A DNA stretch of 39,391 bases from a virus (taxonomy: Duplodnaviria > Heunggongvirae > Uroviricota > Caudoviricetes): the IMG/VR virus record IMGVR_UViG_2778261394_000008, positions 1-39,391 of that record; one strand, written 5' to 3'. This document shows positions 1-28,775 of the stretch, piece after piece. The notes under the pieces were generated by a model, which did no database searches, was not told the origin of the DNA, and saw only the letters and a list, made by a program, of their open reading frames with translations. The translations under genes and the position numbers were made by a program. Within the stretch, counting starts at the first letter, position 1, and every line of letters begins with the position of its first letter.

Positions 1-74
1 CCCGTAACGCCTCTGCCACGCGCGTAACGTGACAGGGATTAAAGGTAAACCAATTGATTTTGCAAGTTTTTATT

Positions 75-1361
75 TTACCCCGCTTTCTTATGGGGCATGC
101 ATGGGACACTTTCAGATAGTCTTCTGTTAAGAAGTTCTATTTGTTCGTGATTGTTGTCTTTCATCCATGCTCCGTAAACATTGAATACCATTTGTGCGTT
201 TGTGTGGCCCATCTGGCTTGCGATAAAACTAGGATTAGCTCCTGCGGCAAGTGACCAGCATGCATAGGTATGCCTGGATTGATACGATTTTCTGTGTCTC
301 AGACCTGCGCGTTTTAAGATACTTGTCCATGACTCCCTGATGGAGTCAACCTTATAGTGCGGTCCGGAAAACTGCCGCTGTTTTATTACCTGAGGACTAA
401 AAACAAAAGTGCATTTATGCACAGTACTTCTCCCATATTCCCTCTGCTTTACCTCTACAGAATGCTGTTTTCCAAGCATGGTCATTTCCGCTTGGCTTTT
501 AAGAGCATCAATAGCTGGTTGAACCAGATGAATCGTTCTTCCGGTACCAGCATCAGTTTTTGGTGGAGTGAATTCGCCTAGTTTTGTATAATTCCGGCGG
601 ATGGTTATAGTCCTCGCTTTAAGGTCTATATCTTCCCAGGCCAGTGATACCAGCTCCCCGTGACGAATACCCGTGTATACAGCGATAATCCACAGGTTTT
701 TTGTTTGTTGATGACGGCAAGCCTCAATAAAACGAATAAATTCGTCACGGGTGAGGGGATCTGGTTCTATCTTGGACTTTTTTAATGGTGTCAGACCGTT
801 AAATGGATTTCCTGATGTATAACCATTATCTGTTGCAAATTGAAACATTCCAGCTATGGTTGTCATATAGTAGTTTACTGTGACCACTGAGCGTCCTTTT
901 ATGGAAGAAATTTTTCCGTTAGAAAGCTTTTGATAACCGGTCAACAGATCTCTCCTTACGAAAAGCAAATCCTCTTTTGTTACAGATGAAACCAGTCTTT
1001 TTTCACCTAACATTGGCAACATGTTTTTAATTACTGACTGGTAACGGTTAAGTGCATTTGCACAAATCTCTATTTTCTTCAGTTCAAGCCATCTTTCCGA
1101 AAGTGCTTTAATGGTTATCTCTCTTTTCCCCAGACCAAAGTGTTTCAGGTTAGGGGACTCAGGGAACTGTGCTGCATAGTCGAAACTCCCCATTCTGATT
1201 GCAAAACAAACGGAAGTGCGGAGGTCACCTGCGATTTTCCGGTTTTTGGCGGTGTCAGGAACACCGAGGTTTTCTCTGACACGTTTGCCGTTATAGTAAA
1301 ACCATATGCGGAGTGATCCGCCATGATTTTCAACGCCTGTTGGGTATGATGTATTACTCAT
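75..1361 (-). CDS. int: Phage integrase, tyrosine recombinase family
   Basis: 428-aa ORF; C-terminal region has tyrosine-recombinase-like residues (RHRKSYQSRHTYACW, VFNVYGAW); GGGAGG SD 5 nt upstream of ATG; sits at the prophage left end beside an excisionase-like gene and is transcribed toward the window edge. Confidence 0.88.
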   Translation of the reverse strand: MSNTSYPTGVENHGGSLRIWFYYNGKRVRENLGVPDTAKNRKIAGDLRTSVCFAIRMGSFDYAAQFPESPNLKHFGLGKREITIKALSERWLELKKIEICANALNRYQSVIKNMLPMLGEKRLVSSVTKEDLLFVRRDLLTGYQKLSNGKISSIKGRSVVTVNYYMTTIAGMFQFATDNGYTSGNPFNGLTPLKKSKIEPDPLTRDEFIRFIEACRHQQTKNLWIIAVYTGIRHGELVSLAWEDIDLKARTITIRRNYTKLGEFTPPKTDAGTGRTIHLVQPAIDALKSQAEMTMLGKQHSVEVKQREYGRSTVHKCTFVFSPQVIKQRQFSGPHYKVDSIRESWTSILKRAGLRHRKSYQSRHTYACWSLAAGANPSFIASQMGHTNAQMVFNVYGAWMKDNNHEQIELLNRRLSESVPCMPHKKAG

Positions 1362-1394
1362 TAAACCTCCCAGACGTCCAGGAGCATTAACAGG

Positions 1395-1649
1395 TTAACC
1401 GGAACTTGCATTTTTAACACCTGGTTGTTTCTGATTTTCGATCCAGCGCATAATTTCCTCTATGTTGTATACGCATTCACTGTTGCTCTTCGGAATTCCA
1501 TCGACAGCGTAATGTCGATATTCTTTCCCCTGTAGCCATGATTTTTTCCTGGCTCGCTCAATGGTGCCTGGTTTTAGCCCTGTCGAAGCAATGAGGGTGC
1601 TTTCTGTACACCATTTACTTGGTGTTATTTGATAGATGATTGTCTGCAT
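1395..1649 (-). CDS. xis: Excisionase-like small DNA-binding protein
   Basis: 84-aa ORF immediately upstream of int on the same strand, GAGG SD 7 nt upstream; small basic protein. Assigned by position and general resemblance to DUF1233-type phage excisionases, not by alignment. Confidence 0.5.
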   Translation of the reverse strand: MQTIIYQITPSKWCTESTLIASTGLKPGTIERARKKSWLQGKEYRHYAVDGIPKSNSECVYNIEEIMRWIENQKQPGVKNASSG

Positions 1650-1656
1650 GTCAACC

Positions 1657-1803
1657 TCATAAAACTTTCAGCCCACGGCAGTGGCACCACACCTCAAACA
1701 TTCGTTTCACAACTTCACGGCAGTAGAAACCGTCAACATCTCGCGTCAGGTCATAACGATTGCCGTAACGCTGGCGTACCCATAGCTCAAACGCTTTATT
1801 CAT
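1657..1803 (-). CDS. Hypothetical small protein (48 aa)
   Basis: Not in the supplied ORF track (below its length cutoff); ATG at 1803 preceded by AAGGAAG SD; fills the gap between xis and the next gene. Translation MNKAFELWVRQRYGNRYDLTRDVDGFYCREVVKRMFEVWCHCRGLKVL. Confidence 0.3.
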   Translation of the reverse strand: MNKAFELWVRQRYGNRYDLTRDVDGFYCREVVKRMFEVWCHCRGLKVL

Positions 1804-1806
1804 TCG

Positions 1807-2049
1807 CTACTTCCTTTTCATGGCTCGTAATTTTTTCAGATGAGCTTCCTGCTCTGTTTCTGCCAGAATTTGTCGGTATTCCTGGTGATCGATCCGTTCA
1901 AACGATTCATTAAAATCGTTCATTTTTACCGATTGTGTTCGCCCATCCATTCTTCTGTACAACACGGTGTTATTTATGCAGCGAATAATTTTTACCGGGT
2001 AACCGGCACTGTCGGTATACAGTTGTCCCTGATTAATCAAAGCAAACAT
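1807..2049 (-). CDS. Hypothetical protein (80 aa)
   Basis: Internal ATG at 2049 is preceded by AGGAGA SD (6-nt spacing); the longer 121-aa track ORF (to 2172) would overlap the upstream gene. Confidence 0.45.
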   Translation of the reverse strand: MFALINQGQLYTDSAGYPVKIIRCINNTVLYRRMDGRTQSVKMNDFNESFERIDHQEYRQILAETEQEAHLKKLRAMKRK

Positions 2050-2080
2050 TTTTTCTCCTGCTCTCTGAATAGTGAGAACT

Positions 2081-2458
2081 TCAGAGCCGTATGTTTGTAG
2101 CGGGTTCAATACTGATAATTTCTGCTGAGATAAGCATCCCGGCAAGCCAGAGTTCTCCGGACAGGTCTTCATCCTGACATATCAGTTCGCCAATATTAAT
2201 GTTGGCCATGATATCTGTTCCCCCTGTGCGCTCATCCTCGACTTCTTCATAAGGCAGCGTTGCGTACAGGCTTTCAATAGCGCAACTGATAACATCCAGT
2301 CCGGTCAGATTGCCGCCGACAGTAACTTCGAATGTTTCGCGGTATTCCCATAGTCCGAAAGTTAATCGAACGGTTTGTTTTGCCATGCGTCCGCATGACG
2401 TCAGATTCGGGTCATAGTTCATTATTTGCGGTTGAGTATTCTGGGTGTTCATCTTCAT
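2081..2458 (-). CDS. Hypothetical protein (about 125 aa)
   Basis: Track ORF 2081-2527 trimmed to ATG at 2458 or 2452 (AAGGGAA upstream); no family recognised. Confidence 0.45.
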   Translation of the reverse strand: MKMNTQNTQPQIMNYDPNLTSCGRMAKQTVRLTFGLWEYRETFEVTVGGNLTGLDVISCAIESLYATLPYEEVEDERTGGTDIMANINIGELICQDEDLSGELWLAGMLISAEIISIEPATNIRL

Positions 2459-2466
2459 TTCCCTTA

Positions 2467-2485
2467 GCCCGGCGGCCTGCCGGGC
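2467..2485 (-). other. GC-rich hairpin (7-bp stem gcccggc/gccgggc, 5-nt loop) between the SPFH gene and the next gene; no U-tract
   Basis: Inverted repeat read directly from the sequence; possible attenuator or RNA processing/stability element. Confidence 0.4.
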
Positions 2486-2492
2486 ATATAAG

Positions 2493-3320
2493 TTATTTAA
2501 TCTGGATAAATGGTGTATTGGCACCACTGGTCATGTATTGCGGCAGTGTACCGTTCCACTTGTTGATGGCTTCCAGCTCCATGACGCCTGGGTTCTGGCG
2601 CAGAGCTTCACCGCGTAAACGAATAGCATCGGCTTCTGCCTGGGCTTTTGTTCGAATGGCATCAGCCTGTCCGGCAGCTTCCGCACGTAGCATGTTGGCC
2701 TCCGCTTCACGTTGCTTGACTTCCTGTTCGCGCTGCAGGGTTTTCTGGTTTGCCGTGACTTTGGCGTTAATGCTGTCGATAACGGTTGGAGGGTATTCCG
2801 GTTTACCTACATAAGAGAGGCTCATTACCTGAATGCCGATGGGTGTCATCTCTTCCTGAATGTCTTTAAGTGCGGCATCCAGTAGTTCAGACTTGCCGCC
2901 GTCGATAAATTTGTCAGTGGTCATTTTGCTGGCCAGCCGATTGAGTGCGTCGGCAATTTTCTGGCGCAGGTCAGTGTCGGTAATGTCATCCACGCCTTTG
3001 CGGTAGGTCTGAAACACCGTGGTAACTTTGGATGGATCAACTTTGTAGGCCACACCGATGTGATAGCCGATGGTTGTACCGTCACTCATCTGGAAACTGA
3101 ACGGTTCATCGTAGGTCTTCATTTGTTTGAAGGTGGGGAAGATATAAACTTCAGTATTCCAGCCAGTCCAGTAGCGACCAACACCGACCACCTCACCGAC
3201 GCCTTTGTCGTCGCCCAGTTTATTTACCTTGATGCCAACATTACCTGGTTCAACGCGATCGCAACCGACAAGGCCAATTGTCGGCAGAACAATGGCTAAA
3301 GCAAAAATAATTTTTTTCAT
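2493..3320 (-). CDS. SPFH/band-7 (stomatin/prohibitin-like) lipoprotein
   Basis: 275 aa; N-terminal signal peptide with lipobox (TIGLVGC); central domain consistent with SPFH/band-7; Ala/Gln/Glu-rich C-terminal coiled-coil region (QREAEANMLRAEAAGQADAIRTKAQAEADAIRLRGEA); start codon overlaps the stop of the upstream small membrane ORF (ATGA at 3317-3320). Confidence 0.8.
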   Translation of the reverse strand: MKKIIFALAIVLPTIGLVGCDRVEPGNVGIKVNKLGDDKGVGEVVGVGRYWTGWNTEVYIFPTFKQMKTYDEPFSFQMSDGTTIGYHIGVAYKVDPSKVTTVFQTYRKGVDDITDTDLRQKIADALNRLASKMTTDKFIDGGKSELLDAALKDIQEEMTPIGIQVMSLSYVGKPEYPPTVIDSINAKVTANQKTLQREQEVKQREAEANMLRAEAAGQADAIRTKAQAEADAIRLRGEALRQNPGVMELEAINKWNGTLPQYMTSGANTPFIQIK

Positions 3321-3505
3321 CTTTTATCCTTAGTGAAAGAAAGCCCCTTGTAAATGGCATAAATGCAGGGCGGGGTCAGAAACGCCAGTGCAAAGCCAGA
3401 AATAACTGCTATCGTATCCTTCATGGATATAAGGAACGGAACAAGTAATCCGTAAATGCATGCGATAATTGCCAGTAAAATTACTATTGTGAAATACAGT
3501 CTCAT
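3317..3505 (-). CDS. Small membrane protein (62 aa, two predicted TM helices), NfeD/YqiJ-like partner position
   Basis: Hydrophobic 62-aa ORF translationally coupled to the SPFH gene; no clear SD. Confidence 0.45.
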   Translation of the reverse strand: MRLYFTIVILLAIIACIYGLLVPFLISMKDTIAVISGFALAFLTPPCIYAIYKGLSFTKDKR

Positions 3506-3528
3506 TGGTCTGTGGTATCCCGATATTT

Positions 3529-3636
3529 TTAACCGACTGACAGCGCAATAAAGAGAATAATGATTTCTGTTAGTGTAAGCACTGTGGCAAGGATTAAAAT
3601 CAGTTTTACTCTGTTTAATTCACGGTTGCTTTTCAT
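3529..3636 (-). CDS. Possible very small membrane peptide (35 aa)
   Basis: Not in the ORF track; ATG..TAA ORF with a hydrophobic core (LILILATVLTLTEIIILFIALSV); no SD, so weak. Confidence 0.2.
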   Translation of the reverse strand: MKSNRELNRVKLILILATVLTLTEIIILFIALSVG

Positions 3637-3681
3637 ATAAACGGTTAGTAAAAAATGGAAGAATTATAGTCTTCTTAATAT

Positions 3682-4263
3682 TTAATGTGTCACTGGCGCT
3701 TCTGGCATACCATGAGTATTCATGTCGTTAATCATTTCATCCAGAAGGAGTTCAAGCCCTTCGCGCCCCATAGCAGAGAGAATGAAACCATTATCAGGAT
3801 CTGCGATGAGCATTTTTTGATAGAGAAACAGAACTCTCCCCATGCCTTCAGCTTCGCCATATTTTTCAATAAATCCCCATTCAACATGGTTTTGCAGGGC
3901 AATGCGAAGTGGCCCCGGGTATATACTTATACAACCATGCTTTCCCTTATAAATAACTGCGTGATCTGTGGTTCCGTTATCGTTAGGGATATCAATGGTG
4001 CCGTTCTTGTTTTCCTCTTCACTGATAAACTTCATCACATACAGCCAGCGCCACTGAGCAACCTTCAGATCGACTGAAAATCTTCCCAGCAATCCGGCAT
4101 CATCAGCTTCGGCAAGACATTGCATGATTCTTAAACCGTGCCAGTATGGATTATCGAATTCGCCATCATTAAGCCGCTGTACGGCCTCAATATAATCAAT
4201 GGTTTTATTACCAATTTTTATGCCATGTGGCGTTACTTCTGGTCGGAACTCTGAATGATTCAT
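3682..4263 (-). CDS. Hypothetical protein (193 aa)
   Basis: Track ORF trimmed to ATG at 4263 preceded by AAAGGAG SD (7-nt spacing); start overlaps the stop of the upstream 62-aa ORF (ATGA); no family recognised. Confidence 0.6.
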   Translation of the reverse strand: MNHSEFRPEVTPHGIKIGNKTIDYIEAVQRLNDGEFDNPYWHGLRIMQCLAEADDAGLLGRFSVDLKVAQWRWLYVMKFISEEENKNGTIDIPNDNGTTDHAVIYKGKHGCISIYPGPLRIALQNHVEWGFIEKYGEAEGMGRVLFLYQKMLIADPDNGFILSAMGREGLELLLDEMINDMNTHGMPEAPVTH

Positions 4264-4448
4264 AATGTTTGCTCCTTTGCTGGTGGAATAATCGTGTAGC
4301 CAGCTCTTTTTGCCATCCACAGAAATGTATCCATGCAACCAACGAATTCATTATCCAACAGATGTTTTGAGTAAATTACTTCACCATTTTCAATAGTTAG
4401 CAACACTCTTACTTTTTTATGTGTTATGTTCTGTTGTTTTTCTTTCAT
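4260..4448 (-). CDS. Hypothetical small protein (62 aa)
   Basis: GGGAGA SD upstream of ATG at 4448; stop overlaps the start of the 193-aa gene. Confidence 0.45.
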   Translation of the reverse strand: MKEKQQNITHKKVRVLLTIENGEVIYSKHLLDNEFVGCMDTFLWMAKRAGYTIIPPAKEQTL

Positions 4449-4644
4449 TTATTTATCTCCCATATGCTTTGCGCAAATACAGGTTGGCTATATGAAGATA
4501 AGAATCTCCATGTTGTGCAATGAGGCAGGCAGTTTTATACGATGCCTTATGTTTCAGGAAGGTCATAACATAATCTCCTGCGAATAAATGTTGCAACAAT
4601 CCCCGGCGATAAAACCGTAATAAACATTCAGGGAATATTTATTG

Positions 4645-5010
4645 TTATTGCGCTAATTCTTTTTCGGCAGCAGCTTTTGCATATTCACATGCAAAATTCA
4701 GAATTTCGCTGCCAAGTACTTTTGTTTCGTGATTACTGGACATATGTAATACCTGTGTTGCATGCAATAAATGATAAACATTTACCGCAAATGAATCAGG
4801 CTCCAGACAAATGCCTTCATAATCATCTTGTTGTGAGGTTGTTTCTGTCATTGCTCCTGAAGTGCATGCGAGCCTGTTTTTGACAATTCTCTTTCCTCTA
4901 ATCACTATATCGGCTACATCTATTGCCTTTACAACCTCCGGGAGAAGTTCCTGGTTTGTATAATCAAAGTTATCAACATGGAGAACAGTTATGTTTTCGA
5001 ACTTTTTCAT
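4645..5010 (-). CDS. Hypothetical protein (121 aa), paralogous to the N-terminal domain of the upstream HTH protein
   Basis: ATG at 5010 overlaps the stop of the upstream gene (ATGA at 5007-5010); its C-terminal ~55 aa aligns by eye with residues ~20-75 of the 153-aa protein (about 35% identity: LExDSFAxN..LL.A....H......K.LG.E...F..EYA..AA). Confidence 0.5.
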   Translation of the reverse strand: MKKFENITVLHVDNFDYTNQELLPEVVKAIDVADIVIRGKRIVKNRLACTSGAMTETTSQQDDYEGICLEPDSFAVNVYHLLHATQVLHMSSNHETKVLGSEILNFACEYAKAAAEKELAQ

Positions 5011-5468
5011 GCGCAAGTATCTCCCGCTGTTGGTTTACCGGTTAACAGCCACATCGGGTCGCAACCAAGAACATTTGCCAGCGGGATAAGCATACTGATA
5101 GTTGGTTCATACTCTCCGCTCTCCCACTGGATTATGATGTCTTCATCGAGATCGAGCAGCCTGGCGAGTTCGGCTGTTGTTAAGCCGCAGGCTTCGCGTT
5201 GGGTGCGAAGGTTAACCAGCCAGCTTTTGGGGAAGGATTGTTTTTGTTGTGCAGGAGAAGCCGCAGATAGGGCATATTCATGGATAAATTCCATTACCTC
5301 AATGCCCAGTTCCTTTGAGCGAGCACAATCCAGAAGATGGAATGTGCGTACAGCACTTAGCAAATTCGCAATATTTAATGCAAAGGAATCAAATTCTAAG
5401 CTCTTAAGCGTAACACAGTCGCAGTTGCTAAAATTGGTTGTTTCTGGAGTTGCGTTTAGTGTCTTCAT
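5007..5468 (-). CDS. Two-domain protein: N-terminal domain of unknown function plus C-terminal XRE-type helix-turn-helix
   Basis: 153 aa; C-terminal segment LRTQREACGLTTAELARLLDLDEDIIIQWESGEYEPTISMLIPLANVLGCDPMWLL matches the Cro/C1-type HTH pattern; first gene of the leftward operon, downstream of the cI terminator. Confidence 0.6.
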   Translation of the reverse strand: MKTLNATPETTNFSNCDCVTLKSLEFDSFALNIANLLSAVRTFHLLDCARSKELGIEVMEFIHEYALSAASPAQQKQSFPKSWLVNLRTQREACGLTTAELARLLDLDEDIIIQWESGEYEPTISMLIPLANVLGCDPMWLLTGKPTAGDTCA

Positions 5469-5574
5469 ATATCCGCCAACAATTTTAAATTGAACTTAAT
5501 CAAGTTATAATTGATGGTGCGATATTATGCTTTGAGAAATAGGCTGTCAAGAAAAAATTGATATCGTGTGTTTT
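5469..5574. promoter_or_regulatory. Putative leftward early promoter/operator region (OL-like)
   Basis: Two 17-bp imperfect palindromes of shared form: ATCAAGttataATTGAT (5499-5515) and GTCAAGaaaaaATTGAT (5546-5562); related CTTGAT half-site motifs recur in the cI-cro intergenic region. Confidence 0.4.
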
Positions 5575-5602
5575 AGGCAGAAAAAAACGGGCAAAGCCCG
5601 TT
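5575..5602 (-). terminator. Rho-independent terminator downstream of cI
   Basis: On the minus strand: AACGGGC-TTT-GCCCGTT followed by TTTTTTT, 11 nt after the cI stop codon. Confidence 0.7.
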
Positions 5603-5613
5603 AAAATCAAAGA

Positions 5614-6303
5614 CTAACCAAATCTGTTTATATTGAATGGTACTGATGAGATCACTTTAGACTGGATATAAAGCAGAGCTAACCCCTCTTTTTCGATGCT
5701 CCATGGTTGATAATTGGGGTTATCAGATAACACCATGATTTTGCTTCCAATTTTTTGAAGTCTTTTCACGTAGCATTCTCCATCAAAACAAAATGCATAA
5801 ATGCCATCGCCATCAAAATAAGTTACTGTCTTATCAAGAAAAAGAAGGTCGCCAGGTGAGATTGTGGGAGCCATACTGTCTCCTCTGGCGTTGCCTATTT
5901 CTATATTTTTAAATGCTCGGTTTCCAACAAGACGACGGGCATATTCAGGATCAAGTTCTATTGAGCGTACTACATCTATAAAGTCTCCGCGGACATGGGT
6001 CCCATTACCGCAACTAAATTCAACGTCAAGTACATTAAATACGACGCTATCTGTTCTTGCCTGATGTTTCTCTTGCGAAGAGAAGGTTGGTGAGGTGTCT
6101 TCACCTAAGAACCAGGATTGTGGATAACCGCTAATCTCTGATAACTGCGCAAGCTTATCGCTCCGTGGAAATGTTTTTCCTGTGGTCCAGTACTGCACTG
6201 ATTGCGCACTCACCCCCAGCTTACGGGCCAGCTGAGCCTGAGTCCATCCTTTTGCTTTCAGCATTGCGGCTATTCTATTTTCTGTGTTTTTGACGTTCTT
6301 CAT
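5614..6303 (-). CDS. cI: CI-type prophage repressor (N-terminal HTH, C-terminal S24/LexA-like peptidase domain)
   Basis: 229 aa; HTH (GWTQAQLARKLGVSAQSVQYW); C-terminal Ser/Lys dyad context (GDSMAPT ... YVKRL); divergent from a cro-like gene. Confidence 0.85.
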   Translation of the reverse strand: MKNVKNTENRIAAMLKAKGWTQAQLARKLGVSAQSVQYWTTGKTFPRSDKLAQLSEISGYPQSWFLGEDTSPTFSSQEKHQARTDSVVFNVLDVEFSCGNGTHVRGDFIDVVRSIELDPEYARRLVGNRAFKNIEIGNARGDSMAPTISPGDLLFLDKTVTYFDGDGIYAFCFDGECYVKRLQKIGSKIMVLSDNPNYQPWSIEKEGLALLYIQSKVISSVPFNINRFG

Positions 6304-6436
6304 GACCAGGTCCCGTGGGTTTCTTTACAAGGGTAAATCTTTACTTGATTTTAGTGTATTCGATCCTTTTGCAACTTGCATGTTAATTTAAACTTGATAT
6401 ATTCTTGATTCATTAAGTTTATCTTGGCGATTTGTT
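6304..6436. promoter_or_regulatory. Immunity-region intergenic with divergent promoters and operator repeats (OR/PR/PRM-like)
   Basis: 133-bp AT-rich spacer between divergent cI and cro; three CTTGAT motifs and inverted repeat TAAACTT..AAGTTTA; candidate PR -35 TTGCAT (6376-6381) and -10 TATATT (6398-6403) with 16-bp spacing. Confidence 0.55.
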
Positions 6437-6709
6437 ATGAAAGGAAATGATTACGACGAACTTCGTGCATTAATTGCGCAAAATGCCATAGCGCGAAATC
6501 TTGGTGTGACACCGCAAGCGGTGAATCAGTGGTTTTCAAAAAGCACAATTCCTGCTCGTTTCGTTTTACGGGTATGTGAGGTGGTTGCATGGAAGGTTAC
6601 GCCTCATGGCTTAAGGCCAGATCTTTACCCTCACCCTGAAGATGGAATTCCTGATTCGTTACGCAAAACATCAAATCCAAGCTTAGCGCACACGGGGGAG
6701 GGGAGGTAA
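6437..6709 (+). CDS. cro: Cro-like HTH regulator
   Basis: 90 aa; HTH segment NAIARNLGVTPQAVNQWF; divergent from cI. Confidence 0.7.
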   Translation: MKGNDYDELRALIAQNAIARNLGVTPQAVNQWFSKSTIPARFVLRVCEVVAWKVTPHGLRPDLYPHPEDGIPDSLRKTSNPSLAHTGEGR

Positions 6710-6715
6710 GGAAGT

Positions 6716-6844
6716 ATGAACGAAGAACGAATCGAATGCATTCTTGAGGCCATATCAGCCCTTACCGACGAAGAGATTCAGGAGGCAAGGACTGTTGCTG
6801 AAAAAACAGCCTTAGCTTTGGGTTTTTCGGTTAATCCTGGTTGA
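6716..6844 (+). CDS. Hypothetical small protein (42 aa)
   Basis: Not in the ORF track; ATG preceded by a strong SD (GGGAGGTAAGGAAG); 3' end overlaps the convergent 75-aa ORF by 14 nt. Confidence 0.3.
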   Translation: MNEERIECILEAISALTDEEIQEARTVAEKTALALGFSVNPG

Positions 6845-7058
6845 TGGAGTTATCCAGAACGGCAGCGATGTATTCACACATATCCTGTCCTCGCTCCCTC
6901 TGCTGTTGCGGCTGACTTTTCAGGTTTTTAATTAACTCCATTCCGGATGCTGCGAGCTTTATTCGCTCTTGGATGGGAAGGGACGACAGCAATAAACCAA
7001 GTAATGCCTCAAGGCCGTCTAGCTTGGTTTCAACGCTGAATTTAGTTGTATCAGTCAT
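6831..7058 (-). CDS. Hypothetical helical protein (75 aa), leftward gene inside the early-right region
   Basis: AAGGA SD 8 nt upstream of ATG; candidate extended -10 promoter (TGgTATACT) just upstream on the same strand. Confidence 0.45.
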   Translation of the reverse strand: MTDTTKFSVETKLDGLEALLGLLLSSLPIQERIKLAASGMELIKNLKSQPQQQRERGQDMCEYIAAVLDNSINQD

Positions 7059-7542: not shown

Positions 7543-7854
7543 ATGCTTAACATTAGCAGCACTCAAAAATTAGTCAACCCTTCAGATCCTGTTGGACAAA
7601 TTCCGGTCGAACAGTGGTACAGAAGAACGTACGTGGTTTCAGAGTACGCCCGCACTTATACCGAGACAATTATCGGAAAGGCCAAATGCCCCTGTTCCGC
7701 AGCTGTGAATGGTGCGATGGCAATACGTAACGCCAATCCTTCGGTTTTATCCATCCGTTTTATAAGTATTGAGCAGCTTTCTCCTGAAGAAGGAGAGGCC
7801 AGCGAGCGCGCCCTTGACGCCTGGTTTGAGAAACATCCTGAGGAGATTGAATGA
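7543..7854 (+). CDS. Hypothetical protein (103 aa)
   Basis: AAGGA SD 9 nt upstream of ATG; stop overlaps the start of the Rha-family gene (ATGA). Confidence 0.5.
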   Translation: MLNISSTQKLVNPSDPVGQIPVEQWYRRTYVVSEYARTYTETIIGKAKCPCSAAVNGAMAIRNANPSVLSIRFISIEQLSPEEGEASERALDAWFEKHPEEIE

Positions 7855-8561
7855 TGAACACCGCAATTTTTAACGACAAAGTATCCATGACCAGCGTTGA
7901 AATCGCAGAGCTGGTTGGAAGTCAACACGGCAATGTCAGAATATCAATAGAGCGTCTGGCAAAACGCGGGGTGATTCAACTTCCTGCAATGCAAAAAGTT
8001 GAGAACGAACAATCATTTAGCCAAAACAAATTCACAAACGCATATATTTTCGAAGGCGAACAAGGCAAACGCGACAGCATCATTGTCGTCGCACAACTTT
8101 GCCCGGAATTCACTGCCCGCCTGGTAGATCGTTGGCGCGAACTGGAAGAGCAGGTGCGCAAACCAATGAGCGAAATCGAAATGGTTGCCGCGATGGCTCT
8201 TGAAGCAGTTCGTCAGCAAAAACGCCTCGACAAGATGGAAGAAAAAGTTAGCCACGTTGCCGAAACTGTCGAACAAATCAAAAGAGGCACCATACGCGAT
8301 GGTTATGCAGGATACCGTCAGCTGGTGGCGAAAACAGGTATGTCAGATGCGAAATGCCGCAATCTGGTGAACGCATATCAGATCCCTACCGACACCCATG
8401 AATTTATGACGCCGGACGGATTATTGTCTCGTCGCGCGATTGTTGCAGTAGAACCCTTCATGTTTGCTTTTCATCGCATGATGAGTGAAGCAGAACCACG
8501 AGGTACTCGCTGGTATCACCCGAAAATGGGCCTGTTTCAGGCGCTGGGCTGGCAGGTGTAA
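7851..8561 (+). CDS. Rha-family phage regulatory protein
   Basis: 236 aa; N-terminal segment TSVEIAELVGSQHGNVRISIERL matches the Phage_pRha pattern. Confidence 0.7.
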   Translation: MMNTAIFNDKVSMTSVEIAELVGSQHGNVRISIERLAKRGVIQLPAMQKVENEQSFSQNKFTNAYIFEGEQGKRDSIIVVAQLCPEFTARLVDRWRELEEQVRKPMSEIEMVAAMALEAVRQQKRLDKMEEKVSHVAETVEQIKRGTIRDGYAGYRQLVAKTGMSDAKCRNLVNAYQIPTDTHEFMTPDGLLSRRAIVAVEPFMFAFHRMMSEAEPRGTRWYHPKMGLFQALGWQV

Positions 8562-8580
8562 TTATGCTCACAGGTAACAC

Positions 8581-8757
8581 ATGCAAGTACTCAATCGCTG
8601 GTTCCGCGATGGCAGAGGGCGTCGCGTCCACGTTATACGCTGGGAGTCTGAAACACAGCGGGTCATTTACCTGCGTGATGGTTATTCGCATGAATGCTTC
8701 AGTCCGTTGTGGTTGTTTCGTCGTGATTTTGTGGAGTGTGAAGCGCCGCCAGAGTGA
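8581..8757 (+). CDS. Hypothetical small protein (58 aa)
   Basis: Not in the ORF track as such (lies in the 5' part of the 507-aa track ORF's region but in another frame); weak SD. Confidence 0.3.
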   Translation: MQVLNRWFRDGRGRRVHVIRWESETQRVIYLRDGYSHECFSPLWLFRRDFVECEAPPE

Positions 8758-8775
8758 CGGCGTAATGGTGGAAAC

Positions 8776-9084
8776 TTACACGAAGCGGATCTGGAGTTTT
8801 TTTCCTGTTGCGCGGGCAAATTTTTTCAGTGTGGAAAATGATGGTCCACTGACACCTGACGCCAGATTACTTTCCATTCTGCTGATGACAGTTGCTTTGG
8901 TTCCCATACGCTCAGCGATCTCAGCCTGGGTTAAACCAGCTTCTTTACGTGCTGCCAGCATTTCATCAAGCAGCGCAAATTCGTCGGCGATGGCGTCGTA
9001 TTCTGCTTTAAAAGCTGGATCCTTCATCCATTTATCAGCCATTTCATCATGTGTAATGGTTAGCGGATTACGTTTACCAGTCAT
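8776..9084 (-). CDS. HTH-type antitoxin (HigA-like, XRE family)
   Basis: 102 aa; HTH (GLTQAEIAERMGTKATVISRME); immediately downstream of, and overlapping, a RelE/ParE-superfamily toxin gene. Confidence 0.8.
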   Translation of the reverse strand: MTGKRNPLTITHDEMADKWMKDPAFKAEYDAIADEFALLDEMLAARKEAGLTQAEIAERMGTKATVISRMESNLASGVSGPSFSTLKKFARATGKKLQIRFV

Positions 9085-9403
9085 GCTTTACCTCCTTCAT
9101 TCTGGTTTCAGCTTTTTGGCGTTCGGCTGGTGGGGTTTTCTGAGTCTTCTTGATGAAACTATGCAGCATGATGATGCGTTTTCCTGCCAGGGTGCAGTAA
9201 AAGACGCGTGCGATGCCATCACTACCTTTAATCCGAAGCTCGAAAAGCCCGTTACCGAAAGCACTGGTATGAGGTTCTCCGAGATTGCTGCCGTATACCT
9301 TCATGCGTTCAACAAGATGCTGGTATCGGGCACGCATACTCAATGGAAGCTGGTCGACCTCCAGCCTGACCTCTTCACTGTAGTATTCGATAGTGTAGTT
9401 CAT
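9074..9403 (-). CDS. RelE/ParE-superfamily toxin (HigB-like / phage Gp49-like)
   Basis: 109 aa; toxin gene precedes the antitoxin (HigBA order); overlaps the antitoxin start by 11 nt. Confidence 0.8.
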   Translation of the reverse strand: MNYTIEYYSEEVRLEVDQLPLSMRARYQHLVERMKVYGSNLGEPHTSAFGNGLFELRIKGSDGIARVFYCTLAGKRIIMLHSFIKKTQKTPPAERQKAETRMKEVKHDW

Positions 9404-9409
9404 GAGTTA

Positions 9410-9433
9410 AAACATAACAAAATGGTTATGTTT
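9410..9433. promoter_or_regulatory. Perfect palindrome AAACATAAC-N6-GTTATGTTT in the toxin 5' leader, candidate TA operator
   Basis: 9-bp arms with 6-bp spacer, 7 nt upstream of the toxin ATG; read directly from the sequence. Confidence 0.5.
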
Positions 9434-10087
9434 GCACAATATATTGATTCTGCAATTTCGGGACGTTACACTGTTCCAGCACCTTATAAAGCGGGTGCCG
9501 GGCGTGGAAACCCGAAATTCAATATAGAGCACAACCGCGCTCATGCGGTTTTTTCGTGTCATGAGCATTGCTACGCCCAAATTATGGTGGGGCGTGCAGG
9601 GCCAACTTCGGTTGGGCCGGGTTCTATGTTGACCGGTATTTCCACCCCTGTACGTCTCACCACCTATATGGTCGTGGAAAGCCTTGGTGGTGAGTTCTTT
9701 GAATTCAACATAGGGGCTGTCACCATGACTACCACCACTACCCACCCATTCCTCAAAATTGAGATTATTAACGGTAAGACCGTTATTTTCTCTTTGCATG
9801 TAGCCTGCCATTTCAAGCGCATGCACCAGAACATCGTCGACAAAATCGAGTATCTGAACTGCTCACGCGAGTTTTTTACCCGCAATTTCATACCGGGTAC
9901 TTATCACATCTATGGTGACTCCCTGCGTGGTTATTACATCACCCTTGATGGCCTGATGATGCTTCAGCTTGGGTTAAGTCTGCGCACAATGCGGTACTAC
10001 GAGAGCTGCATTGAAGCATTCCATGAAACTGAAGCCAGTCTCAGTCACACCGCTTTCCGCCGTAATCAATGGGAGGTGCGCCCATGA
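9422..10087 (+). CDS. Hypothetical protein (221 aa; start uncertain)
   Basis: 3' portion of the 507-aa track ORF that does not overlap the antisense TA genes; codon usage looks coding; stop overlaps the start of the next ORF (ATGA at 10084-10087) with GGGAGGTG SD. Confidence 0.4.
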   Translation: MVMFAQYIDSAISGRYTVPAPYKAGAGRGNPKFNIEHNRAHAVFSCHEHCYAQIMVGRAGPTSVGPGSMLTGISTPVRLTTYMVVESLGGEFFEFNIGAVTMTTTTTHPFLKIEIINGKTVIFSLHVACHFKRMHQNIVDKIEYLNCSREFFTRNFIPGTYHIYGDSLRGYYITLDGLMMLQLGLSLRTMRYYESCIEAFHETEASLSHTAFRRNQWEVRP

Positions 10088-10308
10088 TTCGCCGCGTCGT
10101 TAATTCCCTGTATCACCGATACAACCGTTGCCCCCGTGTGGGGCAGTGGTTTGCCACCAGCAACGGTCACGTTCTGCGGGTTTGTCTGGTCAGCACCGAA
10201 AACCAGAAAGTTGTGTGTGAATTACTGGGGCGTAACTACACCATTAGCTACCCACTGGCGGTGTTTCAGTCCGGAAAAATGTTTAAACGCCTGGGAGGTG
10301 CCGTGTGA
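10084..10308 (+). CDS. Hypothetical small protein (74 aa)
   Basis: Strong SD (GGGAGGTG) 5 nt upstream; translationally coupled to both flanking genes. Confidence 0.45.
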   Translation: MIRRVVNSLYHRYNRCPRVGQWFATSNGHVLRVCLVSTENQKVVCELLGRNYTISYPLAVFQSGKMFKRLGGAV

Positions 10309-11231
10309 GTAGCAAAATTCTCGGTAACGTCTGGGATGCATGTGCCGCGTATGGAGTCAAAGGTGCAAAGCTGATGATCATGGCGCGTCTGGCTGATTAT
10401 TCGAATGATGACGGGGTGTGTTATCCCGGTGTTGAAACAATATGCCGACAGCTTGGGTTGGGAGAAAGCACAGTAAGAACGGCAATTTCAGAGCTGGAGG
10501 CTGATGGCTGGCTGACGCGTCAGTCACGTCGCAAAGGTAATCGTAATACGTCCAATCTTTATCATCTGAATGCTGATCGGCTTGAACAGCTTGCCAGAAC
10601 GGAGCGGGATAAGGTCGCTGAACTGAAACAGCAACGCAGACTTTCAGTATTACGTGACCCGTCAGAATCTGAACCTTCAAAATCTGACCCGTCAGAATCT
10701 GAATGTTCAGGTGTGTTTGACCCTTCAGATTCTGGCAAAAAAACGGTTTTGACCCTTCAAAATCTGGCCCCAGATCCACAAGGTTTAAAACATGATCCGC
10801 AAGTAAATTCAAAACATGATCCGCAAGATATTGGCGCATCCGCTGACGCGTCTGCACCAGCGCGCTCAGCCCGACAGGAATATTCACCGGAATTTGAACA
10901 GGCCTGGCAGGAATATCCCAAACGTGCTGGTGGTAATTCCAAGTCGGCAGCCTTCAAAGCCTGGAAAGCCCGTCTCAGGGAGGGAATAAAACCGGAGATC
11001 ATGCTTGATGGTGTGAGACGTTATGCCGCCTGGGTACGTGCTACAGGAAATACCGGCACACAGTTCGTGAAGCAGGCTGCGACGTTCTTTGGACCCGATC
11101 GTCACTTCGAAGATTTCTGGCAACAGCCAGCCGCTCCCGGAGGTGGGCGACAGCGACAGGTCGATGTCCTGTCTGGCCTTGGTGCCATGTCTGACAAATT
11201 CGGTAAATCCAGTGACAAATTGACATTCTGA
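10305..11231 (+). CDS. Replication initiator (lambda O-like role; N-terminal winged-HTH, iterons inside the gene)
   Basis: 308 aa, GTG start overlapping the previous stop; N-terminal HTH-like region; a direct-repeat iteron array lies inside the coding sequence, as in lambda O; followed by DnaC-like and DnaB-like genes. Confidence 0.65.
   Translation: MSSKILGNVWDACAAYGVKGAKLMIMARLADYSNDDGVCYPGVETICRQLGLGESTVRTAISELEADGWLTRQSRRKGNRNTSNLYHLNADRLEQLARTERDKVAELKQQRRLSVLRDPSESEPSKSDPSESECSGVFDPSDSGKKTVLTLQNLAPDPQGLKHDPQVNSKHDPQDIGASADASAPARSARQEYSPEFEQAWQEYPKRAGGNSKSAAFKAWKARLREGIKPEIMLDGVRRYAAWVRATGNTGTQFVKQAATFFGPDRHFEDFWQQPAAPGGGRQRQVDVLSGLGAMSDKFGKSSDKLTF
10655..10827. repeat. Putative replication origin: iteron array plus downstream direct repeats
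   Basis: tgacccgtcagaatctgaa x2 (10655, 10685), tgacccttcagattctgg (10718), tgacccttcaaaatctgg (10750), spaced ~30-33 bp; then aaaacatgatccgcaag x2 (10788, 10811). Confidence 0.65.
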
Positions 11232-13519: not shown

Positions 13520-13762
13520 ATGACTTTTACGCCTGAACAATTACGTAAACAGGCACAGGAAATGTTACGACAGGCGGAACAACTGGAAAAGACAGGCGTA
13601 ACAAAAGATGCCATTCGTAAGGATATGGTGCCAGCGCTCAGGGAACTGATGCAGGCGAAACACCGCGCACAAAAAGCAGTGGATGAGCTGGTGGATTGTG
13701 TGGCAGAGCTGGAAACCAAAGTTGGAAAGTTTGAAAAACTGGTGCAGGAGGTACTGCGCTGA
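13520..13762 (+). CDS. Hypothetical coiled-coil protein (80 aa)
   Basis: Charged helical ORF between the helicase gene and Q; alternative TTG start at 13505. Confidence 0.45.
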
Positions 13763-14145
13763 TGCGTGATATTCAGATGGTTCTTGAGCGTTGGGGAGCG
13801 TGGGCGGCTAATAATCATGAAGATGTGACCTGGTCGTCCGTTGCCGCCGGTTTTAAGGGATTAATTCCTTCAAAAGTAAGATCTCGTCCGCAATGCTGTG
13901 ACGATGACGCGATGATCATTTGTGGATGTATGGCCTGTCTGAAAAAGAGCAACAATGGCTTACATGATTTGCTGGTGGATTATTATGTTGGTGGGATGAC
14001 GTTTATGATGCTGGCGCGGAAGCATAATTGCTCTGATGGGTATATCGGGAAAAGGTTACAGAAAGCAGAGGGAATAATCGAAGGTATGTTAATGGCATTA
14101 GACATTTGCTTAGAGATGGATATTGATGTTACTAAGCTTAATTAA
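13762..14145 (+). CDS. Late-gene antiterminator Q (small Q family as in DLP12-type prophages, recalled similarity)
   Basis: 127 aa, Cys-rich ([15 protein letters not shown]); positioned after the replication genes and before the late region. Confidence 0.7.
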
Positions 14146-14325: not shown

Positions 14326-15432
14326 TTAGAACTGGTATACCATACCTACAGCAACGATATCGTCAGTGTTTACACCAAGAGCTTTAGTAAAGTCATTTTT
14401 GTCAAGCAGGTTGATTTTGTAATCAACGAAGGTAGACATATTTTTGTTGAAATAATAAGTTGCGCCAACATCAACATATTTGACTAAATCCTGGTCACCA
14501 AAAATGCCAAGATCTTTACCTTTTGATTGCAGATAAGCAACAGACGGACGCAGACCGAAATCGAACTGATATTGTGCAACAGCTTCGAAGTTTTGTGCTT
14601 TATTAGCCACAAAGTAATCTGCGAATTTAGTCATATTCTGGGTTTCTGAATAGGTTGTTGCCAGATAAACGTTGTTTGCGTCGTATTTCAGACCTGCAGC
14701 CCAGACTTCTGCATTTTCGCCGGAAGCAAATACTCCTGGGAGAAGTTTACCCAATTTGACTTGAGTGTCGGTACGATCAGATTTCGCATACGTTGCACCA
14801 ATGCCGAAACCTTCGTATTCATAGGTCGCAGAGAAACCAAAACCATCGCCATTGCCTTTGGTGTAGTTATCTAAGCTACTACGATCATGATTATTCTTAC
14901 CCTGGTACTGTGCAGCAAAATTCAGACCATCAACCAGACCAAAGAAGTCGTTGTTACGATAAGTTGCAACACCAGTGGTGCGACCAGTCATGAATACATC
15001 TGTTTGGGTCCAGGTATCTCCACCGAATTCTGGCAGAACGTCAGTCCATGCACCGATATCGTATGCTACACCGTAGTTACGACCGTAATCGACGGAGCCG
15101 TAGTCACCGAATTTAAGCCCTGCAAATGCAAGACGGGTTTTATCTTTGGCTGCTCCCTGTTCTTCAGTACGGTTTCCTTTGAATTCATATTCCCACTGAC
15201 CGAAACCAGTCAGTTGATCGTTGATCTGAGTTTCGCCTTTGAAACCCAGACGAGCATAAGTTGTGTCGCCATCATTTGCATCGTTAGAGGAGAAGTAGTG
15301 CTTAGCATTAACTTTTCCGTACAGATCCAACTTGTTGCTGTCTTTATTATAAATCTCTGCTGCCTGAGCAGACATCGCCATCAGTACTGATGCAGCCACA
15401 GCAGAAATTGCCACCGTTAATTTTTTCATCAC
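14326..15432 (-). CDS. nmpC: OmpC/OmpF-family general porin (NmpC/Lc-type prophage porin)
   Basis: 368 aa; signal peptide ending [10 protein letters not shown]; porin signatures throughout and C-terminal aromatic residue (VYQF); encoded antisense to the late operon between Q and the lysis genes. Confidence 0.9.
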
Positions 15433-16286: not shown

Positions 16287-17333
16287 ATGGCTAATACTGT
16301 AAAAATATCCAGTTGTGAGTTAATCAACGCTGATTGCCTGGAATTTATCCGGACCTTACCGGAAAACTCTGTCGATCTGATAGTCACAGACCCGCCATAC
16401 TTTAAAGTGAAGCCCGAGGGCTGGGATAACCAGTGGAAGGGGGACGATGATTACCTGAAATGGCTGGCTCAGTGTCTGGCGCAGTTCTGGCGGGTACTGA
16501 AACCTGCCGGAAGTCTCTACCTGTTCTGTGGTCATCGCCTGGCATCTGATATCGAAATCATGATGCGTGAACGCTTTAATGTGCTGAACCACATTATCTG
16601 GGCGAAGCCGTCCGGACGCTGGAATGGGTGCAACAAGGAAAGCCTGCGGGCGTATTTCCCGGCAACAGAGCGCATTTTGTTTGCCGAACATTATCAGGGG
16701 CCATACCAGCCCAAAAGTGACGGTTATGCAGCAAAGGGGCGCGAGCTTAAGCAGCATGTCATGGCCCCGCTGATTTCTTACTTTCGTGATGCGCGCGAAT
16801 CACTGGGGATAACGTCAAAACAGATAGCAGAAGCCACCGGAAAGAAAAACATGGCTTCGCACTGGTTTGGTACCAGTCAGTGGCAGTTACCGAATGAGGC
16901 CGATTACAGTAAACTGCAGGCGCTGTTTGCACGTGTGGTGGCAGAAAAACACCAGCGCGGTGAACTGGAGCAGCCACACCACCAGCTGGTCAGCACATAC
17001 AGCGAACTGAACCGGCAATATGCCAGCCTGCTGGAGGAATACAAATCACTGCGGCGTTATTTTTCCGTATCGGCTGTCGTTCCTTATACGGATGTCTGGA
17101 CGCACAAGCCCGTGCAGTTTTATCCGGGTAAGCATCCCTGTGAAAAACCGGCGGATATGTTGCGTCAGATAATTACTGCCAGCAGCCGTCCAGGCGATTT
17201 GGTCGCAGATTTTTTTATGGGGTCGGGGTCGACAATAAAAGCGGCACTGTCGCTGGGATGCAGGGCGATTGGCGTGGAACTGGAAGAGGAACGTTTTAAT
17301 CAGACGGTCAGAGAAATAACGAAAGATTTTTAA
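16287..17333 (+). CDS. DNA methyltransferase, beta-class amino-MTase (N6-adenine or N4-cytosine), orphan
   Basis: 348 aa; motif IV DPPY near the N-terminus (IVTDPPYF) and motif I FxGxG near the C-terminus (FFMGSGST); no adjacent restriction endonuclease gene. Confidence 0.85.
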   Translation: MANTVKISSCELINADCLEFIRTLPENSVDLIVTDPPYFKVKPEGWDNQWKGDDDYLKWLAQCLAQFWRVLKPAGSLYLFCGHRLASDIEIMMRERFNVLNHIIWAKPSGRWNGCNKESLRAYFPATERILFAEHYQGPYQPKSDGYAAKGRELKQHVMAPLISYFRDARESLGITSKQIAEATGKKNMASHWFGTSQWQLPNEADYSKLQALFARVVAEKHQRGELEQPHHQLVSTYSELNRQYASLLEEYKSLRRYFSVSAVVPYTDVWTHKPVQFYPGKHPCEKPADMLRQIITASSRPGDLVADFFMGSGSTIKAALSLGCRAIGVELEEERFNQTVREITKDF

Positions 17334-22521: not shown

Positions 22522-23070
22522 ATGAAGGTTAATAAAAAGAAGCTCGCGGAAATTTTCAACGTGGATCCACGAACGATTGAACGCTGGCAGTCTCAGGGGC
22601 TCTCTTGTGTCTCTGGTGGTAGTAAGGGGGTTGAATCTGTATTTGATACCGCCATGGCAATTCAGTGGTATGCGCAGCGCGAAGCCGATATTGAAAACGA
22701 AAAACTCCGCAAAGAGACCGAGGATTTGCGTGCGGCTGCGGAATCAGATTTACAACCCGGCACCATTGACTATGAGCGCTACCGACTCACAAAAGCACAG
22801 GCTGATGCACAGGAACTGAAAAATGCCCGCGAAGAAGGGCTGGTACTGGAAACGGAATTGTTTACCTTCATTCTGCAACGTGTGGCACAGGAGATTTCGG
22901 GGATACTTGTACGTGTGCCGCTGACATTACAGCGTAAATATCCGGATATTTCACCGTCACACCTTGATGTGGTGAAAACTGAAATCGCAAAAGCCTCCAA
23001 CGTTGCAGCTAAAGCTGGTGAGAACGTAGGCGGGTGGATTGATGATTTCAGACGCACAGAAGGCAGCTAA
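22522..23070 (+). CDS. Nu1: Terminase small subunit (lambda Nu1-like)
   Basis: 182 aa starting [12 protein letters not shown]; recalled strong similarity to lambda gpNu1 including the N-terminal winged HTH. Confidence 0.9.
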
Positions 23071-24958: not shown

Positions 24959-24961
24959 GTG

Positions 24962-28345: not shown

Positions 28346-28385
28346 GCGGGGATCCGTGATTCAGATAAATCAGGAGACTGAGAAA

Positions 28386-28721: not shown

Positions 28722-28743
28722 TGGTGAAGTGATTAACTGAAAA

Positions 28744-28775
28744 AACGGGTCGAGATACGGCCCGTTTGTGTTTTT
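28744..28775 (+). terminator. Hairpin plus T-rich tract between D and E (possible attenuator)
   Basis: Stem aacggg..cccgtt followed by tgtgttttt. Confidence 0.35.

Follow-up and report, generated by a model that had tools for sequence, protein, structure and literature searches.

The window analyzed here is a 39,391-nucleotide stretch of DNA, positions 1 to 39,391 of IMG/VR virus record IMGVR_UViG_2778261394_000008, and the whole of it is an Escherichia coli lambdoid prophage. A toxin gene and an antitoxin gene lie on its minus strand at positions 8776-9403. We interpret this pair, with a probability of roughly 0.78, as an intact and autoregulated type II toxin-antitoxin (TA) system of the Gp49/Tad-Ata branch of HigBA-like systems, carried on a cassette of ~690 bp between a DUF4222 gene and an isrK/C4 small-RNA module and oriented antisense to early-right transcription. 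The two proteins are identified by sequence and fold, both genes are intact, and the cassette is mobile. A palindrome next to the toxin start keeps its position, is conserved and covaries with the antitoxin, and it is best read as a putative antitoxin binding site inside a minimal promoter. The pair is an ordinary, previously uncharacterised Gp49/Tad-type HigBA-like member on a defined prophage cargo cassette.

The toxin, the antitoxin and their cargo cassette

The toxin gene (9074-9403, minus strand, ATG start) encodes a 109-residue Gp49/Tad-type, HigB-like protein of the RelE superfamily. It matches the Pfam Gp49 family PF05973 over profile positions 2-90 of 90 (expectation value E=1.2e-25; 89.8 bits, gathering score 23.9), and PHROG 2523 matches it end to end. 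PF05973 is the Tad/COG4679 family, named after gp49 of phage N15 (PMC2701414), and is listed as a ribosome-dependent mRNA degradation family with toxin-first gene order (PMC11980606). The best 120 of 2069 toxin homologues all carry PF05973.

The closest PDB sequence is Streptococcus pneumoniae HigB (6AF3_A), found at 1e-5 with the single sequence and at 2e-9 with a profile, and the profile also reaches Mycobacterium tuberculosis HigB1 (7NBU/7AWK) at 2e-3. An AlphaFold2 model with a predicted local distance difference test (pLDDT) score of 94 has the RelE/BECR fold, with an antiparallel sheet (strands at 46-85), flanking helices and the long C-terminal helix of Gp49-like members (92-108). Foldseek places this model nearest to HigB 6AF3/6AF4 and ribosome-bound HigB1 7NBU, at template modelling (TM) scores of 0.72-0.77 (0.76 to 6AF4, 0.72 to 7NBU), followed by RelE, YoeB and HigB2; HigB, HigB1, RelE and YoeB were matched at E values of 5e-7 to 3e-3.

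Mutations have identified R68, R73, F90 and K92 as catalytic participants in S. pneumoniae HigB (PMC7984235). In HigB1, E66, R68, R77, K95 and K99 matter by mutation and F93 is a proposed core residue (PMC9098466). Six residues of the window toxin (E55, R57, R66, F83, K85 and K89) align to the catalytic residues of these two proteins and are invariant in 41 homologues.

Database starts for this gene are inconsistent. RefSeq and GenBank toxin calls for near-identical genes measure 231, 264 and 450 nt against a family norm of 330 nt, and the start is annotated at three different positions among closely related genomes (9575-9838 in L001, the E. coli strain EC11 locus; 3070-3300 in L004; 2995-3444 in L005; 2993-3223 in L006; 4307-4570 in L167, Shigella phage 75/02 Stx). 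Because the best homologues are mostly 107-111 residues long, we take the 109-residue start as right and the RefSeq calls of 76-87 residues as truncations. The discordant calls were probably caused by a missing Shine-Dalgarno (SD) motif and a competing antisense open reading frame (ORF).

The antitoxin gene (8776-9084, minus strand, ATG start) overlaps the toxin gene by 11 nt (9074-9084). Its 102-residue product has N-terminal helices at 12-31, an XRE helix-turn-helix (HTH) domain at 33-92 and a C-terminal tail. Pfam HTH_3 matches residues 44-98 (E=1.7e-11; 44.4 bits, gathering score 23). The top PDB match is HigA 6AF3_B at 9e-5; toxin and antitoxin share this top entry, as the two chains of S. 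pneumoniae HigBA. In the AlphaFold2 model (pLDDT 88), helices span 12-20, 23-31, 33-49, 53-60, 64-76 (the recognition helix) and 83-92. The model combines a Cro/C1-type HTH with an extra region of two helices (12-31), in keeping with an XRE-type antitoxin, and Foldseek returned only generic XRE, HipB and C-protein folds for it. The score against HTH_37 (PF13744) was 17.4 bits, below the gathering score of 27, and no HigA-family NCBIfam model was matched, all NCBIfam scores lying far under their cut-offs. Because the protein falls under the cut-offs of HTH_37 and of the named HigA models, its accurate label is 'HigA-like/Ata-like XRE antitoxin'. Many of its homologues carry precomputed PF13744 matches.

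Both genes are under strong purifying selection. The ratio of nonsynonymous to synonymous substitution rates (dN/dS) is 0.03-0.06 for the toxin and 0.03-0.12 for the antitoxin, at dS up to ~2. Of 164 loci with the toxin, 155 also have an antitoxin homologue, which in the loci inspected follows the toxin gene directly.

An earlier note on this DNA, made from the letters and a list of ORFs, had proposed a RelE-superfamily toxin followed by an XRE antitoxin in HigBA order. The 109-residue ORF and the overlapping 102-residue ORF lie where it placed them, and Pfam, PDB sequence, profile and fold comparisons all agree with its assignment. Of the profile families it had named, the Gp49 family was recovered for the toxin, whereas PF05016 gave no match at E<=0.01 and the named HigA models stayed below cut-off. 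PADLOC recovered no defence system; it gave a partial match of toxin residues 50-99 to the NsnC C-terminus and generic HTH matches.

Alignment with TA-less relatives delimits a mobile cargo cassette at 8753-9442, which contains the toxin, the antitoxin, the putative operator and the predicted minimal promoter. Homology to the E. coli OkiPb01695 prophage (L002) and to an O111 prophage (L003) breaks just past the stop codon of the DUF4222 gene (8581-8757, plus strand; Pfam PF13973, E=2e-15), which forms the left edge of the slot, and restarts at 9443 (ATTGATTC). The cassette thus comprises the TA pair, the palindrome and 9 more bases beyond the palindrome. It measures ~690 bp in the window against 3 bp in the no-cargo relative, a net gain of 687 bp. 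The slot is empty in the O111 prophage, and in the OkiPb01695 prophage it holds a ProQ/FinO-domain gene (L002 2819-3211; Pfam E=2e-13). The position of this alternative cargo, an RNA-chaperone-type protein encoded directly upstream of the isrK/C4 small-RNA genes, suggests a functional pairing.

Among 5426 complete E. coli genomes, 19 have the cassette, chromosomal every time, and it is also found in the Shigella Stx phages 75/02 and POCJ13. Phage PhiR5_2 carries a version with 72% toxin protein identity. In Shigella phage 75/02 Stx and PhiR5_2 the cassette occupies other early-region slots and is antisense to its neighbours there too. The pair had been described as inserted, and antisense to the surrounding early genes. 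Relatives with nothing or a ProQ/FinO gene at the identical junction bear out the former, and plus-strand flanking early genes, with the recurrence of this orientation in the two other phage contexts, the latter.

Putative operator, predicted promoter and translation signals

The palindrome, AAACATAAC-N6-GTTATGTTT, occupies 9410-9433. Its two 9-bp arms are exact, as the earlier note had described, and the gap to the toxin ATG is 6 nt (9404-9409) rather than the 7 given there. It is unique in the window: with up to three mismatches allowed, the pattern occurs once against 0.01 expected. When the 2-kb region was shuffled, perfect inverted repeats of 9 bp or more with a spacer no longer than 8 arose in 4.4% of the shuffles; for the 60 nt that precede the toxin ATG, the figure was 0.35%.

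We fetched 160 loci with toxin homologues and retained 74 non-redundant, full-length loci for comparison of operators and promoters. The centre of the palindrome lies at -16.5 to -18.5 from the toxin ATG in 49 of these 74, and the family operator core is TA-x-C-N6-G-x'-TA. Changes at x and x' are compensatory (A/T in 34 loci, T/A in 14, G/C in 12 and C/G in one). The antitoxin columns with the highest mutual information to x are residues 64, 65 and 66 (z of 19-23, against ~13-15 for the next-ranked), which form the start of the modelled recognition helix; operator classes follow clades, and this covariation, confounded by phylogeny, is supportive rather than decisive. The arms are identical at 18 of 18 positions in an Edwardsiella copy at dS ~1.45 from the window, and the palindrome accompanies the toxin gene at chromosomal sites outside phages as well. 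Position, compensatory arms and covariation with the recognition helix together support the earlier suggestion that this is a likely autoregulatory operator.

The same sequence appears to lie within a sigma-70 promoter. The predicted -35 element TTGTGC (9434-9439, minus strand) is at the outer edge of the cassette, and the predicted extended -10 element TGtTATGTT (9411-9419, minus strand; read by hand and confirmed by script) is formed by the operator arm nearest the toxin. The elements are separated by a 17-nt spacer, and 7 nt (9404-9410) separate the -10 from the toxin ATG, so that the TTG of the -35 begins at -36. Columns aligned on the ATG of the 74 loci show enrichment of TTG at -35 to -33, T/A at -12, A at -11 and T at -7. 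TTG, 16-18 nt and TAnnnT ending 5-8 nt (mostly 6 or 7) before the ATG were found in 51 of the 74 loci, against 0.7 on average and 3 at most in shuffles; the extended -10 TGn is present in 45. By toxin identity, the geometry was found in 15/15 loci at 85% or more, 11/13 at 60-85%, 12/19 at 45-60% and 13/27 at 38-45%. The earlier note had placed the palindrome in the leader of the toxin gene. This was not borne out, as the palindrome occupies the spacer and extended -10 of the predicted promoter, and the predicted transcription start is at the toxin AUG.

Translation signals differ sharply between the two genes. An SD motif precedes 5% of toxin starts versus 96% of antitoxin starts in the 74 loci, and the mean energy of the anti-SD duplex is +0.3 kcal/mol for the toxin and -8.8 kcal/mol for the antitoxin (Mann-Whitney p=8e-24). 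In the window, the antitoxin SD AAGGAGGT (9090-9097, minus strand) lies 5 nt before the ATG, inside the 3' end of the toxin gene, with a duplex free energy of -13 kcal/mol. The toxin start codon is ATG in 70 of the 74 loci. Because transcription is predicted to start at the ATG and the toxin has no SD motif, its mRNA is probably leaderless or nearly so.

Leaderless genes are considered rare in E. coli. We rejected a leaderless layout as a rule for all of PF05973, as N15 gp49 has an AGGAGG leader and Firmicutes-type relatives have clear SD leaders. In the literature that could be searched, leaderless TA genes are described for mycobacteria and paaR2 (PMC8630535) and in MazF contexts, and not for the HigB/higBA family.

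Proposed mechanism and competing explanations

From what is known of the family, the toxin would enter the ribosomal A site and cleave mRNA by means of E55, R57, R66, F83, K85 and K89. The antitoxin would dimerise and neutralise the toxin through its non-HTH parts. Comparative anatomy suggests that the antitoxin dimer, with or without toxin, uses recognition helix 64-76 to bind the palindrome. Since the palindrome would fill the spacer and extended -10 of the promoter, such binding would occlude RNA polymerase. The transcript would begin at the toxin AUG or within 1-2 nt of it, leaving a toxin cistron that is leaderless and for that reason poorly translated. The near-perfect antitoxin SD inside the toxin 3' end could then yield an excess of antitoxin despite the toxin-first order. 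With a minimal promoter of its own and an orientation opposed to lytic transcription, the cassette would be expected to be expressed in the lysogen.

Several observations weigh against this account, besides the phylogenetic confounding of the operator covariation. About one third of the sampled loci lack the strict promoter geometry. In the window, the -35 matches only 3 of 6 positions, and a consensus promoter scan of 8400-10400 gave no sigma-70 site; the scanner missed the predicted TA promoter because its thresholds reject a 3-of-6 -35. Part of the -10 is an operator arm, which makes the evidence for promoter and operator interdependent. N15 gp49, the namesake of the family and 45% identical to the toxin, has a strong AGGAGG leader. 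Finally, the proposed HigB1 pocket residues K58 and N73 have no conserved counterpart in the toxin.

The negative scan and the weak -35 could instead point to a promoter outside the cassette and a conventional, longer leader. A/U-rich leaders can support S1-dependent initiation. The toxin would then be initiated independently of an SD on such a leader, and the operator, downstream of the transcription start, would act as a roadblock. We consider this unlikely. The TTG is found at the same position in three unrelated flanks (the window, the Shigella phage with TTGAAT and Edwardsiella with TTGCGA), where it is kept 17 nt from the -10, and the excess of the promoter geometry over shuffles is difficult to reconcile with a promoter elsewhere. 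In addition, only 39 bp of the cassette lie upstream of the toxin ATG; a portable module limited in this way would otherwise be promoterless.

It is also improbable that the pair has lost its activity or is decaying, or that its toxin is non-toxic like M. tuberculosis HigB2 and HigB3, which are listed in the same Pfam family (PMC11980606) and are non-toxic (PMC9098466). The missing equivalents of K58 and N73 and the truncated toxins of 76-87 residues that PGAP calls in several genomes would fit such a state. However, the full-length 109-residue toxin ORF is present in all copies and is covered end to end by its PHROG, the low dN/dS extends over dS up to ~2, and none of the six catalytic-pocket residues varies. 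The missing SD and the stop-free antisense frame account for the truncated calls.

We give little credence to the palindrome being an RNA hairpin, either in a longer TA mRNA, where it would mask the toxin start, or in a rightward phage transcript, with ATG 9422 in the loop. The plus-strand RNA does fold into a 9-bp hairpin (-7.1 kcal/mol; -9.0 in context), and an RNA stem would likewise show compensatory arm changes. However, many family members have perfect palindromes with no spacer (for example ATAACAAATTTGTTAT), in which full pairing would use up every base and leave nothing for a loop. The half-site is not a stretch of free pairing: its motif is fixed except for one base, and that base tracks the antitoxin recognition helix. 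The promoter geometry puts the palindrome upstream of the predicted start, the palindrome goes with the toxin gene in chromosomal contexts outside phages, and the stretch opened by ATG 9422 has no coding signature.

A ParE-like gyrase poison in place of an mRNase is very improbable: it has in its favour the RefSeq product name ('RelE/ParE family') and ParE chains at ranks 16 and 25 of the Foldseek list, but these have TM scores of 0.36-0.40 and E>0.06, PF05016 (ParE) was not matched at E<=0.01, the nearest folds are HigB, HigB1, RelE and YoeB, RelE-type residues are conserved, and PF05973 is listed under ribosome-dependent mRNA degradation (PMC11980606).

The promoter-operator arrangement favoured here may extend beyond the window. 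We tentatively propose a wide Gp49/Tad-type subclade with a conserved 'promoter-operator-AUG' design, in which a leaderless toxin cistron is followed by an antitoxin with a strong SD. The subclade spans 38-100% identity to the toxin and includes Gamma-, Beta- and Alphaproteobacteria, Chlorobi, Campylobacterota and others. No description of this design was found in the literature that could be searched. If it holds, it would be a built-in translational answer to the problem of toxin-first ordering. Toxin synthesis would in addition depend on how well the cell can carry out leaderless (70S-type) initiation, a capacity that shifts under stress and possibly during phage infection.

Prophage neighbourhood and comparison with known systems

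RefSeq calls a plus-strand 'ash family protein' that overlaps the 5' end of the toxin gene, and the palindrome had been reported to overlap the start of this divergent ORF. A plus-strand ORF does begin there (in-frame ATGs at 9422 and 9428), but its 5' half is non-coding and holds two RNA genes. The first is an isrK-like small RNA with an intrinsic terminator (9479-9555, plus strand), matched at full length by Rfam RF01394 (61.6 bits, gathering score 50); a terminator hairpin at 9533-9550 with its T-run was found independently. The second is a C4-type antisense RNA (9580-9667, plus strand), matched at full length by RF01695 (82.4 bits, gathering score 45). Both lie outside the cassette. Matches to isrK and C4 were found in every relative, some of them in 2-3 tandem copies (L002 at 3261/3362 and L003 at 2791/2892; two copies in L004, three in L005 and two in L006).

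Upstream of isrK, a promoter is predicted at 9444-9472 (plus strand), with the -35 TTGATT at 9444-9449, a 17-nt spacer and the -10 TACACT at 9467-9472. Its geometry recurs upstream of 10 of 10 isrK copies, including a second variant (TTGCGC ... TATATT) with equal spacing, and the predicted +1 at 9479 coincides with the first base of the Rfam model. The cargo slot is located exactly upstream of this -35. The predicted -35 boxes of the TA pair and isrK stand back to back, 4 bp apart, and the palindrome is 10 bp from the isrK -35. Antitoxin bound to the operator at this distance might influence the switch that controls the antirepressor.

In the 'ash' frame, 9443-9724 has a dN/dS of 0.6-1.0 with substitutions even across codon positions, whereas 9725-10084, the Rha domain, has a dN/dS of 0.07-0.17 with third-position bias. 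The likely true ORF of the call is 9725-10087 (plus strand), probably a real gene encoding a 120-residue Rha-domain antirepressor-like protein; Pfam Phage_pRha matches its C-terminal part below threshold (28.1-28.4 bits, gathering score 29.9). Most of the Pfam Phage_ASH match (nt 9467-9736) falls on isrK and C4, in a stretch with no coding signature, and the Phage_ASH family may, at least here, be a conceptual translation of RNA genes. We rejected Ash translation from ATG 9422 or 9428, inside the palindrome, as 9443-9724 is non-coding and covered by the full-length Rfam matches. The true divergent neighbour of the toxin is the isrK/C4 module, followed by the antirepressor-like ORF. This order resembles PisrK-isrK-orf45-anrP of Gifsy-1 (PMC4825925).

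The plus-strand frame of ATG 9422 is free of stops over 8489-10087, across the antisense TA cassette and the DUF4222 gene (in another frame), which creates a spurious ORF of 507 residues. Over the TA cassette the other frames contain 12 and 13 stops and this one none (synonymous recoding gives P~0.011), and no stop interrupts it in the unrelated ProQ cargo of L002 either. Selection for a stop-free antisense frame, for read-through or anti-polarity, was rejected because the frame is largely open in copies from other contexts too, and stops interrupt it in two copies that do have the ash context. We treat the frame as a shadow ORF that misleads gene callers.

Two further matches to a small RNA, sRNA-Xcc1 (RF02221), echo the placement of the window TA cassette beside a small RNA. 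One, in Edwardsiella ictaluri (L007 2086-2171, minus strand), is divergent from the toxin gene and 330 nt upstream of it. The other, in Shigella phage 75/02 Stx (L167 6590-6673, plus strand), is just upstream of the Ant antirepressor gene.

The surrounding prophage has an integrase gene (75-1361, minus strand) in its left part, a CI-like S24 repressor gene (5614-6303, minus strand) and the rightward early genes. Rha (7851-8561, plus strand) is an early gene flanking the TA pair, O-like, DnaC-like and DnaB replication genes follow from 10305 (plus strand), and the Q antiterminator gene is at 13762-14145. Just 3' of Q, on the opposite strand, lies a full-length OmpC-type porin gene (14326-15432, minus strand; Pfam Porin_1, E=8e-152), a further cargo gene of this prophage. 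A DNA methyltransferase gene follows at 16287-17333 (plus strand; Pfam N6_N4_Mtase, E=1e-42); further downstream, between Q and the lysis genes, EC11 has a TerB-family gene.

The TA locus is 99.9% identical to that of EC11. The left ends of the two prophages are not collinear (window 1-7000 versus L001 1-7500). In the window this region holds the integrase gene, a second DUF4222-domain ORF (1807-2172, minus strand) and an SPFH/Band-7 protein gene (2493-3320, minus strand), and in EC11 the corresponding end has potAB and then a tail-fibre assembly gene. The head and tail genes of the window prophage look intact. Terminase large subunit, portal, major capsid and tape-measure are single long ORFs here (23039-36128) and are annotated as frameshifted pseudogenes in EC11 (L168), suggesting assembly errors or decay in EC11 and not in the window prophage.

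There is little unusual in the gene pair itself, as TA modules are common on prophages and the toxin already has the RefSeq label RelE/ParE family. This one may benefit the prophage, by aiding its retention or by excluding phages, or may be purely selfish. What the analysis adds is, first, the definition of a cargo slot in this group of lambdoid prophages: it lies immediately upstream of the isrK/C4 promoter, its bounds follow from the exact ends of the cassette, and in relatives it holds a ProQ/FinO gene or nothing. Second, the operator in a minimal promoter, leaderless toxin and strong antitoxin SD make a testable regulatory model for a large uncharacterised PF05973 subclade. Third, systematic annotation errors are exposed, both in toxin starts and in an 'ash family protein' whose 5' half consists of two RNA genes.

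Compared with known systems, the pair shares with canonical HigBA (Rts1 and E. coli K-12) the toxin-first order, a toxin of RelE fold, an HTH antitoxin and, as predicted here, the ribosome dependence of the toxin and repression through palindromes. The canonical toxins belong to PF09907 and PF05015, Pfam families that differ from that of the window toxin (PMC11980606), and the canonical HigA to COG3093. The predicted start at the AUG, with operators inside a lambdoid prophage promoter, resembles lambda cI transcribed from PRM and paaR2 of the prophage TA system paaR2-paaA2-parE2 (PMC8630535). There, however, the leaderless gene is the repressor and the starts were mapped experimentally, whereas in the window it would be the toxin gene and the start is predicted.

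M. tuberculosis HigB1, the toxin of a toxin-antitoxin-chaperone (TAC) system (7NBU, 7AWK), has the same Gp49-like fold and shares pocket residues, and its cleavage of mRNA in the ribosomal A site has been demonstrated directly (PMC9098466). The TAC system depends on a SecB-like chaperone, whereas the window cassette has no third gene; HigB1 identity is ~24%, and the K58 and N73 equivalents are missing. S. pneumoniae HigBA (6AF3/6AF4) provides the best sequence and fold match of the toxin and the best sequence match of the antitoxin. The long C-terminal helix and counterparts of R68, R73, F90 and K92 are common to both toxins, and S. pneumoniae HigA binds palindromes in its own promoter through its HTH (PMC7984235). 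It differs from the window pair in its low identity (~20%), its 141-residue toxin and its four palindromes versus one.

The Gp49-HTH_37 pairs of Tn3-family transposons likewise have this toxin family, toxin-first order and a small portable cassette beside a divergent regulatory region (PMC7157771). They are carried by transposons and not by a prophage, and whether they have their own promoter was left open (PMC7157771), whereas the comparative data here argue for one in the subclade of the window pair; the regulatory model proposed above bears on that question.

Lastly, the pair resembles Tad-Ata of Paracoccus plasmid pAMI2, N15 gp49-gp48 and SXT s045-s044 in its PF05973/COG4679 toxin, toxin-first order, XRE antitoxin and carriage on a mobile element (PMC2701414). 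Tad-Ata-type pairs combine a COG4679 toxin with a COG5606/XRE antitoxin. N15 gp49 is 45% identical to the window toxin over residues 15-105; unlike it, gp49 lacks the first ~14 residues and is preceded by the strong AGGAGG leader.

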